A stretch of 64,000 nucleotides of DNA from Escherichia coli 042. Its GTDB lineage: Bacteria; Pseudomonadota; Gammaproteobacteria; Enterobacterales; Enterobacteriaceae. The stretch lies in NCBI RefSeq assembly GCF_000027125.1, contig NC_017626.1, one strand, 5' to 3'. Positions 32,011 through 45,569 of the stretch are shown here, one piece after another (within the stretch, counting starts at the first letter, position 1; the number at the start of each line of letters is the position of its first letter). Both the position numbers and the translations under genes were made by a program. The notes under the pieces are model-generated. The model searched no databases. It worked only from the letters and a program-made list of their open reading frames with translations, and was not told the DNA's origin.

Positions 32011-34320
32011 ATGGAGTTATGGATATTTATAGTAGCTATTTATTTGATTTATATTCTTTTTTTCAAAAAGAAGAAAACTAAGTCCGCGGGCTCTTATACT
32101 TCCGCTCCTGTGAAAGCACCACCTAAAGAATGGCTTGCTAACAACAAAAAAAATCAGTCTGTAATGCAAAACGAGGACAGCGAAGATGACAATCTGGCTA
32201 CGTTTACACTAAGTGGCGGGCGGAATGTCGAATACAGCATAACAGCCACTCAACGCCAGAATTTCTCAAAAACTACCGGTGCTTTGGCTCGTTGGATTTT
32301 TCCGGGAGAGATGATCACAGTCAGTGGGATAGAGGTTACCGGCGGTCACTTCTATCTTGGGCAGCGTATGAAACCTGCCGGGCATAACTCAGGCGGTTAT
32401 TATGATGGCAATAACGAGGCATCGCTAGTTGACGACACGCTTAAAATATACCCCACACCTTACATTTACGAAGATAGTTCATTAGGGTATTGGCCCAGTT
32501 TTTCCTCACTTTCACCTGAAGCTCGTGGTGCGTACCTGAGTTGGCTTGCCAGCGACAGATGCGACACTTCCTGCCCAATTGGTTACGTTTTCATTTATCT
32601 GTATGGTCTGGAAAGAAGGGCGCTTGTTGACAGCAGGGACAACAATATATCCGACGATGAGTTCTATTCTCTTTTCAAAGAGATCTGCCGTCTCAGATCG
32701 GTTTTCAATGAAAACCGATCTTTCCGGAATTACTCATCCCAGTTACTTGAAGCGATGTCCATTCTTCGTCCGAACGAAAATCTTGCAGCAGCTCTCAACG
32801 ATGATTCGGAGTTCAGCAATAGCATGCAGTTCAGGTTAATCCTGGCAAAGACTGTTGATACAGGAGCCCCGGTTCCAGCGGATCTGGCTCTGACGTGGGT
32901 GACAAACCATGCTGAATACTCATTACGAACCCCCGCCCGCCGCTGTGCGAAAGAATTTGCTGCACTATTTAAACGGCGTTACACCCTTAAATACGGTGAA
33001 GGGATGGTAGTGAAGCCGAATAAAGCGCGTCTGCGTTTAGATTACACGCCTGCAAGTCCCAGTTTGCGAGGTATTCGGCTTCCTGTTCCCGACTTGCCTG
33101 ATCCAGGTGCATTGAAAGGCCCTGTTCAGAAGCTTATGGCCATTGCCGATATATGCACAGGTGAACTGGATGCTTACAGTCGTTACCTTGGTAGAAAAGG
33201 TACTTCAGCAAATGATACCGCTGCAATTTTGTTGCTGCCTTCAGAAATCGTTAACGAAAGCGCAGAAAAAATATTAAGTACATTCAAACACTGGGCTGAT
33301 GACGCAATCCGCAGTAAGGGTGGGATAGTTTCAGTTGCTGACTACTGGTCACATATGAATGCCACCTGTCCGGCGAAGATCAATAAAAAAGAGGCCGACT
33401 TAATGCAAGCCTTTGCACAGAAAATGGGATACTGTCTGGCTCCTGACCCCTATCACCACCACGTAAAGGCAGATGTCGATGGTGTACTTGTTTTATTCCC
33501 TGCTGGTGAAAGAGGACGTTTCTCACCTTCTCCTGAATTTATCACAGCTGTATTGACGCTCCGATTAGGTTCGGTAGTCGCCTTGATTGACAATTCTCTC
33601 GATCAAGCCGAACAGAAAGTGCTTGAGAATGCCATCAACAACAATGCCAGCTTCAGCGATGATGAAAAGCGCTCTCTGCACGCATATTTAACGTGGCAGC
33701 TTCATACTCCGGCGAATATGACGGGAATGAAAAGCCGGATTGAATTACTCGGTGCAGCGGAAAAATCAGCTGTGGGTAAGGTTATCGTTAGTGTCGCTTG
33801 CTCTGACGGCAGAATTACGCCTGCCGAAATCAAACAGCTTGAGAAGATTTATACAAGCCTGGGACTGGATCCCTCATCCGTATCAAGCAATATCCATCAG
33901 CATTCCGCAACTGAAACTGCTCTCGTTTCATCTGTACCAGCTAATCAGTCGACGGCAGGGTTTACGCTGGATGCCAACGTACTTGCCCGCCACGAATCTG
34001 CCACTGATGATGTTCGTAAATTACTGAACTCAATTTTCACTGAAGAAGAACCAGAACAACCAGAAAGCGCTCCAGCCTCATTAACCGGGGAAGGGGGACT
34101 TGACTCCGCTCATAGCCAACTTTATCGCAGGTTGCTGGAGAAAGAACAATGGTCCAGAAAAGAGGCGACAGAGTTGTGTAGTAACTGGAACCTGATGCTC
34201 GGCGGTGCGCTTGAGGTGATTAACGATTGGTCCTATGCGGTGGTTGATGCACCAGTGCTGGAAGATGCTGATGATCACATTTGGATTGACCTGGAAATAG
34301 CCAAAGAATTAGAGGGTTAG
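32011..34320 (+). CDS. TerB-domain membrane-anchored protein (Shango SngA-like)
   Basis: 769 aa; N-terminal TM helix (MELWIFIVAIYLIYILFF), region with GYVFIYLYGLERR and a later ...VSVACSDGRITPAEIKQLEKIYTSLGLD block that I recognise as TerB-N / TerB-like; first gene of a tightly packed three-gene operon. Confidence 0.6.
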   Translation: MELWIFIVAIYLIYILFFKKKKTKSAGSYTSAPVKAPPKEWLANNKKNQSVMQNEDSEDDNLATFTLSGGRNVEYSITATQRQNFSKTTGALARWIFPGEMITVSGIEVTGGHFYLGQRMKPAGHNSGGYYDGNNEASLVDDTLKIYPTPYIYEDSSLGYWPSFSSLSPEARGAYLSWLASDRCDTSCPIGYVFIYLYGLERRALVDSRDNNISDDEFYSLFKEICRLRSVFNENRSFRNYSSQLLEAMSILRPNENLAAALNDDSEFSNSMQFRLILAKTVDTGAPVPADLALTWVTNHAEYSLRTPARRCAKEFAALFKRRYTLKYGEGMVVKPNKARLRLDYTPASPSLRGIRLPVPDLPDPGALKGPVQKLMAIADICTGELDAYSRYLGRKGTSANDTAAILLLPSEIVNESAEKILSTFKHWADDAIRSKGGIVSVADYWSHMNATCPAKINKKEADLMQAFAQKMGYCLAPDPYHHHVKADVDGVLVLFPAGERGRFSPSPEFITAVLTLRLGSVVALIDNSLDQAEQKVLENAINNNASFSDDEKRSLHAYLTWQLHTPANMTGMKSRIELLGAAEKSAVGKVIVSVACSDGRITPAEIKQLEKIYTSLGLDPSSVSSNIHQHSATETALVSSVPANQSTAGFTLDANVLARHESATDDVRKLLNSIFTEEEPEQPESAPASLTGEGGLDSAHSQLYRRLLEKEQWSRKEATELCSNWNLMLGGALEVINDWSYAVVDAPVLEDADDHIWIDLEIAKELEG

Positions 34321-34323
34321 TGA

Positions 34324-43388: not shown

Positions 43389-43781
43389 CGGCAGATTCAG
43401 TGTTTAGGTATTAAACCATTGTTAATTATAGGGAGAGAGTCAGTGCGATACCGTTACCCAGGAAAGGTATTCCACTGCGCAGATGATTGCCGGTGTCACA
43501 TCCCACCGCCGTTTCAGAACCGGTAACAGCTCATTAAGGTTTCTGATATAACGCTCAGTGAAAACCGGACTGATTACAGGTAATGGTGATATGACAGGTA
43601 TCGTTGCCAATATACACGGCTTCCAGAGGTATGAATCTTACATTCCAGTACCAGGAGTACGGCGAGTGGTTCAGATGAAAAAGACGCATCTGAATATCGT
43701 TAAATAACGGGTTCATGGCGAATTAAATAAACCTGATAATAACAGTATGGGGAAAGTCCGGAATAAAGAAATGGTCCGGTA

Positions 43782-45569
43782 TTATGCAAAATCCTCAAGG
43801 TGACGACTGATACTGTTTTCACGGTAACAGGTCACCAGTAATTCACGGGTTGCCCGGGTGAACGCCACATAAAGCACCGGGATTACTTCAGACTCATCCG
43901 CTACACCAGAAGGAATGAAAGACGCATTGATAACCGCCACATACGGGAACTCCAGCCCCTTACTGCTCTGATATGTCAGTAAATGCACCACATCCTTACG
44001 TCGCGAGTATGCCTTCTTGCCTTCCCTGTCAAAACAGGTGGCAAAAGGCATCCCGCGTTGTGTCATAACGTCCTGCAATTGTTTCGCTGAATGCTCTGTC
44101 GGACACAGCACAGCCATATCACTCCAGTGACCGCACAGGGCATGGCACTTCTCCAGCCAGTCTGCAACCTGTCTGGCTTCATCACGTTCAGAAGCACAAT
44201 GCAGGATTTCCGGCTCTGTACCCTCTTCACCGCCTGCCTGTGGCTGAACAAGTGGTATTTCACGGTTCTGATGTTTTTCAAAATACTCGCGAGAGAATGC
44301 ATAAGCAAAGTGCAGAATGCGTTTCGGATTACGATAATTGACCGGCAGGACAGAAGTGCGTCCCTGCGCCTGAATCCCCACACTGGCCAGAGAAAAGTTC
44401 AGAGCCCGCTCCCGCCGATAAATGGACTGGGCATCATCGTACATCAGGAGCAGTGAACGGGATGCGTTATCAAACAGACGGGCAATCAGGGCCAGCCAGC
44501 GACTGTCAAAATCATGCCCTTCATCCACCAGTACAGCATCATATCCGGCGTCGGTGATTTTCCCGCTGTTCACAGCCTCTTCCAGTGTGCTGAAGCATTT
44601 CTCCGGGTAATCCTTTCTGTCAGCCGTCACCTGAATACCGTGGCGTTTTATCATTGAGGCACACCAGCTGTGAAAATGAGATACCGTAACCCGTGACGTC
44701 AGCCCTCTGACATCAATGCATTCCCGCAGATAACTGGCCAAAGTAATGTTGTAGCACAGCACCAGAATCTTTCCGGGCGTGGTTTCAGCCAGGTAAAGGC
44801 AACGGAATAAAAGAATCATGGTTTTTCCGGAGCCGGCCACACCATGAATGACACGATGCCCGTCACCAATATTTCTGGCCAGAATCTCCTGCTGAATATC
44901 CATGATTTTGATTTGTGAGTTCTGTTTCACGGTCACTTCAGGAAACAGATGGGCGCGCAGAATATCTCTCATCCGGGGTGTCACCCGGGTTCTGAATCCC
45001 GTGGTAAACATCCCGGCAATTTTTTGCCGGAATACCTCAGGTAAAACAGACTGCGTCATTTCATCCTGACAGATTGTCTGTGCTGAAGGAAAAATCTTTT
45101 CCACCGCATTCTCATCATTCCCTGTCAGTGCCTTCAGTTGCTGACGGGTAATGCGGGTGAACACCACACCATACGCCCAGGCCAGGTTCAGCCGCCCCTT
45201 ATACTGACCGTCATTCTGCCGTAAGCACGGGTCAGCAAGTAAGGCATTAACCGTATCACATGCATAACGACGAGCCTGTACCAGCGGATTTATTTCTGAT
45301 TTCAGAAGACCGTCGGTTTCCAGTGTAACCTGCTCCTGATTTGCTTTACGTAATGTGGATACAGTCCAGTCCTTGACCTCCAGAAATACCAGCCCGTTAT
45401 CCGGGTCAATAATGACAAAATCCGGATGTCGGTTTTTCCGTCCCACCGGGATATCGTACCAGACAAAGCAATCATCATTCAGAAAGCTCTCCAGTCGTGA
45501 AGCCACCCTCCTCTCCCCGGACGTCATTCTCTCCTCAGTGGACGCCGATACATTTATCAGTTTCGCCAT
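43782..45569 (-). CDS. NERD-domain nuclease fused to UvrD-like SF1 helicase
   Basis: 595 aa; N-terminal NERD-like block (FVWYDIPVGRKNRHPDFVIIDPDNGLVFLEVKDW), Walker A GVAGSGKTMILL, DEGHDF Walker B, C-terminal UvrD-like helicase region. Confidence 0.65.
   Translation of the reverse strand: MAKLINVSASTEERMTSGERRVASRLESFLNDDCFVWYDIPVGRKNRHPDFVIIDPDNGLVFLEVKDWTVSTLRKANQEQVTLETDGLLKSEINPLVQARRYACDTVNALLADPCLRQNDGQYKGRLNLAWAYGVVFTRITRQQLKALTGNDENAVEKIFPSAQTICQDEMTQSVLPEVFRQKIAGMFTTGFRTRVTPRMRDILRAHLFPEVTVKQNSQIKIMDIQQEILARNIGDGHRVIHGVAGSGKTMILLFRCLYLAETTPGKILVLCYNITLASYLRECIDVRGLTSRVTVSHFHSWCASMIKRHGIQVTADRKDYPEKCFSTLEEAVNSGKITDAGYDAVLVDEGHDFDSRWLALIARLFDNASRSLLLMYDDAQSIYRRERALNFSLASVGIQAQGRTSVLPVNYRNPKRILHFAYAFSREYFEKHQNREIPLVQPQAGGEEGTEPEILHCASERDEARQVADWLEKCHALCGHWSDMAVLCPTEHSAKQLQDVMTQRGMPFATCFDREGKKAYSRRKDVVHLLTYQSSKGLEFPYVAVINASFIPSGVADESEVIPVLYVAFTRATRELLVTCYRENSISRHLEDFA

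Follow-up and report, generated by a model that had tools for sequence, protein, structure and literature searches.

The region between positions 32,011 and 45,569 of our window (the whole 64,000-nucleotide stretch of the Escherichia coli 042 chromosome, contig NC_017626.1, that was analysed) is best explained, with a probability that we put at roughly 0.72, as part of a mosaic genomic island at the tRNA-Phe gene pheV, in which independent cassettes have gathered around a backbone and been exchanged between strains. The backbone would combine the ibrA-ibrB-perC-hyp214 block with the decayed end of a type VI secretion system 2 (T6SS-2) cluster, of which a frameshifted ImpA_N-VasL gene and hyp101 are left, the core having been deleted beside an insertion sequence (IS) fragment. 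The Shango operon would then be a cassette on one side of the block, a solitary NERD-UvrD nuclease-helicase would have been inserted between tssE and hyp101, and the slot between ibrA and VasL (ibrA|VasL) would have been filled by a horizontally acquired, AT-rich gene for an ADP-ribosyltransferase (ART). The region is an ordinary defence-gene hotspot, with swappable anti-phage genes on a decayed secretion-system locus.

The initial annotation of this DNA had described several candidate nucleic-acid-targeting systems clustered within about 14 kb as a defence island. All of the open reading frames that it listed are present at their coordinates, and its reading holds for the region as a hotspot, since the slots contain recognised defence cargo in other strains, but not for every gene. 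Guilt by association had to be applied gene by gene: among the three unfamiliar neighbours that were proposed to be defence-related, the one at 42041-43388 is a T6SS relic and that at 38271-39244 comprises a backbone gene and a regulator, which leaves 41280-41987 as the sole neighbour for which a link to defence is supported. The comparison of the pheV island across E. coli genomes that had been suggested as a check showed that the modules separate and that cassettes are swapped between strains, and such swapping is a stronger argument for a non-random organisation than co-localisation in a single genome.

The identities of the genes are established, as is their setting. A tRNA-Phe gene, the attachment site of the island (27125..27200, + strand; ARAGORN), is followed by a tyrosine integrase gene (27398..28663, +), called by PGAP and matching an NCBIfam integrase domain at 1.4e-74. 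The 20 kb from position 27000 are 99.8% identical to the E. coli H3 chromosome, in whose record the tRNA-Phe gene comes after yqgA, with speC, nupG, mltC and mutY further along that side. Because of these flanks the tRNA gene is pheV, and because the tRNA gene and the integrase lie upstream, 32011-45569 falls inside the pheV genomic island. The counts of E. coli genomes given here were obtained by megablast searches of 5,426 complete genomes, and the whole 14.2-kb arrangement is found in 255 of them. Loci used for comparison are named by strain or by label (L003, RM6927; L005, OkiPb01677; L016, CFT073; L024, O157:H7 EDL933; L028, SC407).

Exchange slots and the T6SS-2 relic

The variability of the slots is established by comparing the window with SC407, OkiPb01677, RM6927 and CFT073, among which the flanks are conserved and the cargo differs. 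The slot between ibrA and the VasL remnant is occupied by the orphan ART gene, by a Mokosh-like helicase, by Kiwa, or by the orphan together with an OLD nuclease. SC407 carries the same island from the integrase through the NERD helicase, sharing the phosphoethanolamine transferase, the outer-membrane protein, Shango, hyp107, a hyp214 homologue, PerC, IbrB, IbrA and the POTRA/ImpA remnants, and has an 893-aa helicase at the position of the orphan. This superfamily 1 (SF1) helicase (L028 14757-17438; L003 12410-15091) matches MkoA at 3.2e-43 and MkoC at 5e-41 over the helicase portions only. Its cassette is the commonest alternative occupant beside ibrA, being present in 641-648 genomes that include O157:H7; no nuclease partner is annotated alongside it. 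In OkiPb01677 the ibrA|VasL slot holds KwaA and KwaB while a type I restriction-modification (R-M) system takes the position of Shango, and CFT073 and related strains (L006, L016) have the orphan with an OLD-family nuclease in the same slot of their pheU islands. As far as sequence comparison can tell, defence cargo that is swapped around a conserved core is the behaviour of a defence hotspot. A promoter scan of the region returned sites no more frequently than did shuffled sequence.

Defence hotspots on integrase-bearing elements are well described in E. coli: of the 41 reported, 18 are at tRNA genes (Hochhauser et al. 2023, PMC10121019). Since clustering of defence genes at tRNA loci is established in E. 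coli, the organisation of the window is already of a known type, and as defence islands on tRNA-associated elements are well known it adds little in itself. The window shares with the hotspots of that study an island with an integrase at a tRNA gene, cargo that varies from strain to strain, several defence or defence-like genes lying together and exchange at fixed positions. It differs from them in that its slots flank a conserved ibrAB-perC-hyp214 block and a T6SS relic, and in that a single resident, Shango, is of a validated type. As searched, the main text of PMC10121019 names neither pheV nor this core-and-slot architecture, which appears to be undescribed within the literature that we searched. 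What the comparison provides is a precise map of a widespread hotspot, whose block occurs in about 1,250 of the 5,426 genomes and whose cassettes can be set against one another with the rest of the backbone unchanged.

The degenerate ImpA-like locus of the initial annotation (42041..43388, - strand) is real and is degenerate, but as a neighbour in a defence island it does not stand, for it is a frameshifted ImpA_N-VasL gene, the last of a decayed T6SS-2 cluster. In tblastn, residues 1-145 of an intact 457-aa ImpA_N-VasL map to 43388-42954 and residues 148-443 to 42931-42044 in a different frame, and PGAP divides the interval into separate calls for VasL, a POTRA pseudogene and ImpA_N. The locus also has an embedded POTRA/ShlB-like fragment: within the VasL-frame reading frame, 42578-42736 matches residues 287-339 of a POTRA/ShlB-like protein of 348 aa with 68% identity, and other strains encode this protein at the position of the VasL remnant. 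Beyond it lies hyp101 (43446..43716, -), a small T6SS-2-associated gene that tblastn recovers in two pieces and PGAP labels 'frameshifted'; it is intact in L015, L012 and OkiPb01677.

The gene order in other genomes shows where these remnants come from. OkiPb01677 has the same ImpA/VasL remnant, followed by tssE, tssJ, tssG, tssF, tssA and tssM. In L015 the order is tssM-tssA-tssF-tssG-tssJ-tssE, the NERD helicase, hyp101, an intact ImpA_N-VasL and a hyp214 homologue (57% identity), and L012 and L013 keep this order and continue into kps capsule genes. An intact ImpA_N-VasL also ends the T6SS cluster at the syntenic tRNA-Phe/speC/mltC/mutY locus of Serratia marcescens (L008), where there is no NERD helicase. 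In O157:H7 EDL933 an IS66-truncated NERD fragment and a tssE pseudogene lie at pheV ahead of espL2, nleB and nleE, and since both are retained, this island (OI-122) was built on the same decayed T6SS-2 end. From these arrangements the ImpA-like locus is a relic of the last T6SS-2 gene. The core genes tssA-M, present in OkiPb01677 and L015, are absent from the window, where the frameshifted ImpA_N-VasL and hyp101 remain. Their deletion is marked by an IS911/IS3-family transposase fragment (45671..45913, -), a pseudogene annotated by PGAP as 'integrase core domain' whose IS911 match recurs in thousands of records.

The proposal that 38271-39244 might be defence-related was not borne out by the same comparison. 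The interval contains a PerC-family regulator and hyp214 (38271..38915, -), which has no match in Pfam, PADLOC, PHROG or NCBIfam. Diverged homologues of hyp214 (54-57% identity) lie directly after VasL at the T6SS-2 end, with neither IbrAB nor defence genes alongside. Because of these copies, and because all of its source-named homologues are from Escherichia, we assign hyp214 to the same backbone as the T6SS-2 end. The ratio of non-synonymous to synonymous substitution rates (dN/dS) of hyp214 is 0.19-0.35. That hyp214 and the AT-rich orphan might be paralogues was considered and ruled out (BLASTP E 0.19).

Several observations weigh against reading the region as a collection of exchanged defence cassettes. 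Shango is the only recognised system in the window and the only member of an experimentally validated family here, the NERD helicase and the ART being candidates. The PADLOC model that the NERD helicase matches, C3a187, is presumably a candidate family associated with type III CRISPR rather than a proven system, and neither on an IncF plasmid nor on a Ralstonia megaplasmid is the context of this helicase clearly one of defence. About four of 11 contexts of ART relatives have no recognisable defence neighbour, and one of the four resembles a plasmid leading region; anti-defence genes are typical of such regions. IbrA or IbrB is frameshifted in several strains, and in other genomes the left slot, on the Shango side, holds pgt genes, IS elements or a group II intron. 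Slot occupants of the latter kind are in keeping with another explanation, that the clustering is a by-product of repeated IS and integrase insertion and of decay in a permissive tRNA island, with Shango as the sole defence system and the NERD helicase, the orphan and IbrAB having unrelated functions or no current ones. Besides IS fragments and several pseudogenes, the same island does carry a microcin H47 cluster and genes for a phosphoethanolamine transferase and an outer-membrane protein, and some strains have a pseudogene in place of the orphan, IbrA or IbrB. This explanation is nevertheless improbable in our judgement, because Kiwa, the OLD nuclease, the Mokosh-like helicase and type I R-M recur in exactly these slots, because all of the modules are under purifying selection (dN/dS 0.06-0.35), and because relatives of the ART adjoin defence genes in unrelated taxa and in the cargo of Tn7-like transposons.

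The AT-rich orphan as a candidate effector

The concrete candidate gained from this analysis is a solitary DraT-like ART without an antitoxin partner, encoded by the AT-rich gene at 41280-41987. The gene is real, as had been supposed, with 41001-42000 at 33.9% GC and the flanks at about 50%, and with a better start its reading frame becomes 41280..41933 (-), for a protein of about 217 aa. The E. coli protein has no match in PADLOC, PHROGs or NCBIfam, nor in Pfam even at E<=10. A profile made from five relatives defines a family of at least 236 cluster representatives (50% identity), typically about 300 aa long, that spans many Proteobacteria and some Firmicutes. The AlphaFold model of the orphan, computed on 80 relatives, has a predicted local distance difference test score (pLDDT) of 92.8 and a predicted template modelling score (pTM) of 0.89, and in a Foldseek search of AFDB50 it matches annotated dinitrogenase reductase ADP-ribosyltransferases (DraT) at E 3.8e-11. 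Of the 80 sequences, 77-80 share Arg117, Ser151, Glu191 and Glu194, residues that the E. coli copy also has and that are placed on predicted β-strands or immediately ahead of them. At the level of the structural model, the ART fold with its conserved R-S-E triad is established, and it identifies the orphan as an ADP-ribosyltransferase. The Pfam DRAT profile (PF07357) matches few family members directly, the best at 6.3e-7; one member of the 80-sequence alignment scores at or below 0.001 and five at or below 0.1, the corresponding numbers in a 38-sequence alignment are none and two, and the E. coli orphan itself falls short of these values. The gene is full length in 460 genomes, with any match in 474, and its dN/dS against the CFT073 allele is 0.35.

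In its predicted fold and in its Arg, Ser and Glu-x-x-Glu residues the orphan resembles DraT (PF07357) and the R-S-E ART toxins C3, VIP2, HopU1 and Tre1. It differs from DraT in having no Pfam match, no DraG, ARH or macro partner, no nif context and no conserved neighbour, and a C-terminal tail of about 70 aa, which family members typically carry, is missing from the enterobacterial copies. All-against-all BLASTP of the neighbouring genes at eight loci found no partner or antitoxin; since no other gene family is common to these loci, the ART has no linked DraG, macrodomain or antitoxin gene, and no DraG/ARH glycohydrolase is annotated beside it. This sets it apart from DarTG and CmdTAC (LeRoux et al. 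2022; Vassallo et al. 2022, PMC9519451), in which an ART is likewise a presumed toxic effector in a defence neighbourhood but is accompanied by a cognate antitoxin, the DarG macrodomain or CmdA with the chaperone CmdC, whereas the window ART is solitary and belongs to the R-S-E/DraT group.

Two 550-aa relatives of the orphan (P0133 and P0142) have an N-terminal domain of about 250 aa fused to the ART, and by eye this domain looks like a HipA/PI3K kinase. One member of the 38-sequence set has a weak match to Pfam HipA_C (E 0.1), and one structural neighbour of the ART model in AFDB is annotated as a PI3K/PI4K catalytic domain protein.

Of 11 independent contexts of the family, about seven are defence-adjacent. 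In Serratia, Kiwa immediately adjoins the ART gene. In Providencia a type I R-M system and a GmrSD/HEC-06-like gene lie about 1.5 kb away; the cargo of a Tn7-like transposon (L009) includes an SNF2 helicase, PDC-S63 and a type I methylase with its specificity subunit; and Iodobacter has a HerA/mad8-like ATPase. On an Enterobacter IncF plasmid the ART gene lies with a cluster encoding VWA, TerD, TerY-C, a PP2C phosphatase and a kinase, which we take to be a TerY-P system. The E. coli pheU island contributes the OLD nuclease, and the pheV window itself Shango and the NERD helicase. The neighbours are unknown genes in a second Tn7-like cargo (L017), hypothetical genes and imuABC on a Pseudomonas plasmid, and leading-region-like genes on an Agrobacterium plasmid (L029); in Methylotenera nothing was recognised. 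The initial annotation had allowed that its proposal would fall if the neighbours were never found near defence genes in other genomes. This did not happen for the orphan, whose defence association is supported by its occupancy of a swap slot, its DraT-like ART identity and the position of its relatives beside defence genes in other taxa.

Within the literature that we searched, the family is not described as a tested defence system, and a stand-alone DraT-like ART family appears to be undescribed. The boldest reading, to which we give less than even odds, is that the family comprises undescribed single-gene anti-phage effectors of the abortive-infection type, traded as cassettes with Kiwa and the Mokosh-like helicase in the pheV/pheU slot. 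The protein would be restrained by its own N-terminal helical domain until infection, and would then use NAD+ to ADP-ribosylate a macromolecule of the host or of the phage, as in abortive infection. If the ART does defend against phage, it would be a new type of effector among single-gene systems.

The ART could instead serve a purpose other than defence, either as a factor that helps mobile elements in attack or establishment (by countering defence, or by modifying host targets as T4 Alt/Mod does) or as a leftover T6SS-2 toxin whose immunity gene has been lost. In E. coli as in Serratia the gene adjoins the end of T6SS-2, and its structural neighbours include the T6SS effector Tre1, other ART toxins and, in AFDB, ART domains fused to phage head-morphogenesis proteins, all of which would fit such a role, as would the leading-region-like setting of the Agrobacterium plasmid relative among an ArdC-like zincin, a large ParB and a Phd antitoxin. 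However, the protein has only about 217 aa, an N-terminal helical region and the ART core, and no conserved immunity or ARH/macro partner was found in the eight loci. In Serratia, Kiwa lies between the ART and the T6SS genes, and there is no T6SS near the relatives in the Tn7-like cargo, in Providencia or on the Enterobacter plasmid. Nor did 50,697 phage genomes, PHROGs or a pattern scan of IMG/VR give a match to the ART; the pattern search, made from the five-sequence alignment, returned four genome loci and no viral contigs. We regard a role outside defence as unlikely for the orphan ART.

On plasmids, both the ART relative (L029) and the NERD helicase (beside psiB and ParB; L025) were observed in leading-region-like settings, and it is a possibility that both have establishment or anti-defence roles there.

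Shango and the NERD helicase

The Shango-like operon of the initial annotation was confirmed as a complete SngABC set, each gene matching its own PADLOC model. The first gene, sngA (32011..34320, +), encodes a TerB-N-domain protein that matches SngA at 8.6e-100 over residues 41-768 and that PGAP calls TerB N-terminal domain-containing. It is followed by sngB (34324..35640, +), for a BrxD-like ATPase with a full-length SngB match at 3.8e-186 and a BrxD match at 1.5e-44, and by sngC (35637..37835, +), for a DEAD/DEAH (BrxHI-like) helicase with a full-length SngC match at 1.2e-277. The genes are co-oriented, with a 3-nt gap between sngA and sngB and a 4-nt overlap between sngB and sngC, and the operon is closed by a terminator-like hairpin (37851..37876, +; an 11-pair stem and then a T-run, found as a consensus match) that begins 16 nt past the sngC stop. 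The trio of TerB protein, ATPase and helicase is that of the described Shango systems, from which the window operon shows no notable difference (Millman et al. 2022, 10.1101/2022.05.11.491447; Johnson et al. 2023, PMC10250203). The phage resistance of its relatives has been tested by others in published work, and the window operon would provide helicase- and ATPase-dependent anti-phage defence in the same way.

Shango is full length in 442 genomes, with any match in 821, and many of the partial matches listed are remnants of 90-790 bp from the 3' end of sngC that, where examined, abut hyp107. It also occurs alone in another integrase island (L023), with 97% identity, beside an HsdR-N-domain protein. 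The segment that moves with it to L023 corresponds to 31872-38144 of the window and reaches the 3' part of hyp107 (37883..38206, -), a small open reading frame of doubtful status, called by PGAP, with a low-complexity basic tail. Because the shared segment runs into it, it is possible that hyp107 spans a recombination junction and is not a real gene. It has no match in Pfam, PADLOC, PHROGs or NCBIfam, it has no relative among the genes that follow the hyp214 homologues in L012 and L015, and its dN/dS of 0.37 derives from just nine substitutions.

The NERD helicase (43782..45569, -) is intact, as had been noted; in the matter of defence it stands as a candidate. It is a protein of 595 aa with a NERD nuclease domain and a UvrD-type SF1 helicase, and it matches the PADLOC model C3a187 'NERD+UvrD' over its full length at 4.5e-140. 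Its Pfam families are NERD, UvrD-helicase, UvrD_C and AAA_19, with matches to GajB-like helicases at about 1e-20 and to UvrD/PcrA in the PDB at about 1e-14. The gene is full length in 614 genomes (any match in 1,047), has a dN/dS of 0.17, and is present or absent between tssE and hyp101 depending on the strain. It occurs without the ibrAB block in L004, L012, L015 and an IncF plasmid, and solitary mobile copies lie near psiB on this plasmid (L025) and on Ralstonia megaplasmids. The top matches listed in a protein search were near-identical E. coli entries only, and gave no new contexts.

Two known systems were considered for this protein and set aside. For Gabija its matches are partial and GajB-like only, and since no GajA gene adjoins, it is not Gabija. 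For Nhi and Nhi-like systems, PF09848 (DUF2075) is absent from its Pfam families, the helicase being UvrD-type (PF00580); NERD is, for its part, listed among the domains of Nhi-like and Mokosh type I systems (PMC10952713). The likeness to Nhi-like proteins and to GajB lies in the fusion of an N-terminal nuclease-type domain, here NERD, to an SF1 helicase, and the differences lie in the UvrD-type rather than DUF2075 helicase, in the lack of a GajA partner and in a best model that represents a candidate family. In the literature that we searched, no NERD-UvrD protein is described as a tested defence system. Its domains make a role as a defence gene plausible, and it may unwind and cut invading or replicating foreign DNA.

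The IbrAB-PerC block and flanking genes

IbrAB is not a recognised defence system, and we treat the IbrAB/PerC block as a backbone module of phage type that is regulatory or possibly DNA-modifying. The initial annotation had listed an IbrAB-like operon among its nucleic-acid-targeting systems; the pair is present and intact, and what underlies the functional label is domain resemblance. Downstream of the orphan, ibrA (39907..41139, -) encodes an ATP pyrophosphatase of the PP-loop, PAPS-reductase-like type with a DUF3440 domain (PAPS reductase in the PGAP call; Pfam PAPS_reduct and DUF3440 at 1.5e-24; PP-loop SGGKDS; phrog_2302 at 1.1e-82). The next gene, ibrB (39284..39922, -), encodes a ParB/DndB-like protein with a DGFHR motif (VVDGFHRQ in the translation), called 'IbrB-like' by PGAP and matching phrog_2159 at 1.4e-81 and, weakly, ParB_N. 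The two adjoin, with a 16-nt overlap, as an IbrB-like (ParB-like) and an IbrA-like (PAPS_reduct with DUF3440) gene. The PerC-family transcriptional activator gene perC (38936..39205, -) was called by PGAP and matches phrog_994 at 2.7e-16 among 'transcriptional activator' PHROGs. The genes ibrA-ibrB-perC-hyp214 share one orientation, at most 78 nt separate each from the next, and the four are probably co-transcribed. The dN/dS values of IbrA (0.07), IbrB (0.06) and PerC (0.06) indicate strong purifying selection.

The module hyp107-hyp214-PerC is full length in 558 genomes, and any match to hyp214-PerC extends to 1,251, including CFT073 and O157:H7. The ibrAB block occurs without Shango in L002, L003, L006 and L016. 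Homologues of IbrA are found in 224 phage genomes from many hosts, with a ParB-like gene alongside in some of the records listed; Escherichia phage PhiR5_2 has an IbrA/IbrB pair, its IbrA sharing 91% identity with that of the window. Despite the very low dN/dS of the intact alleles, ibrA or ibrB is frameshifted in L003, L005, L006 and L016, which suggests recurrent recent loss of function. Since several islands have a frameshift in ibrA or ibrB next to neighbours that are intact, we place the block with the backbone rather than with the defence cargo. IbrAB reportedly acts as a trans-activator of prophage eib genes, and in the literature that we searched there is no description of it as a tested defence system.

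An assignment of the pair to a Dnd, Ssp or BREX type 4 module was tried and rejected: IbrA matches DndC at 2.4e-4, scoring 14.9 bits against the NCBIfam DndC cut-off of 290, and BrxP at 2.6e-7, and no DndA/D/E, SspA-C or PglZ/BrxC-type BREX partner is present in the locus. The pair does resemble the DndB/DndC, SspD and BrxP modules in joining a ParB/DGxHR-like protein to a PP-loop PAPS-reductase-like enzyme; it differs from them in the C-terminal DUF3440 domain of IbrA, in the weakness of the similarity and in being common in phages. That IbrAB and the adjoining variable gene form one system, with DndB/DndC-like marking and the cassette (ART, Mokosh-like helicase or Kiwa) as an effector that reads the mark, could draw on the intact PP-loop of IbrA with its weak DndC/BrxP similarity, on the DGxHR-type ParB/DndB-like motif of IbrB, on the variable gene always lying immediately upstream of ibrA in the same orientation, and on the ART (474) and helicase (648) cassettes nearly accounting for the 1,251 genomes with the block, but it is very unlikely, given that IbrAB stands alone near cobUST in many genomes (L007) and in the 224 phage genomes, that in other taxa IbrAB does not accompany the ART family or Kiwa, that DndA, DndD and DndE have no equivalents, that the neighbouring gene is intact where ibrA or ibrB is frameshifted (L003, L005, L016), and that IbrAB is said to act on eib.

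The rest of the island is varied. Between the integrase and Shango, at 28982-31439, lie a diverged CptA/EptA-like phosphoethanolamine transferase gene (5.7e-32; far under all MCR cut-offs) and a second gene, for an Adr/OmpW-like outer-membrane protein. An integrase fragment after this pair suggests an older, second integration event. Several pseudogenes, IS fragments and a microcin H47 cluster are also carried by the island. On the far side, 46500-49700 and beyond contain a DUF4222 gene, a gene for an ECs1377-family protein (7.2e-98) and other small conserved hypothetical genes, past which lies the microcin H47/colicin V-type cluster with its MchF exporter. The same downstream set of small genes flanks the ibrAB block in strains that have no microcin genes.

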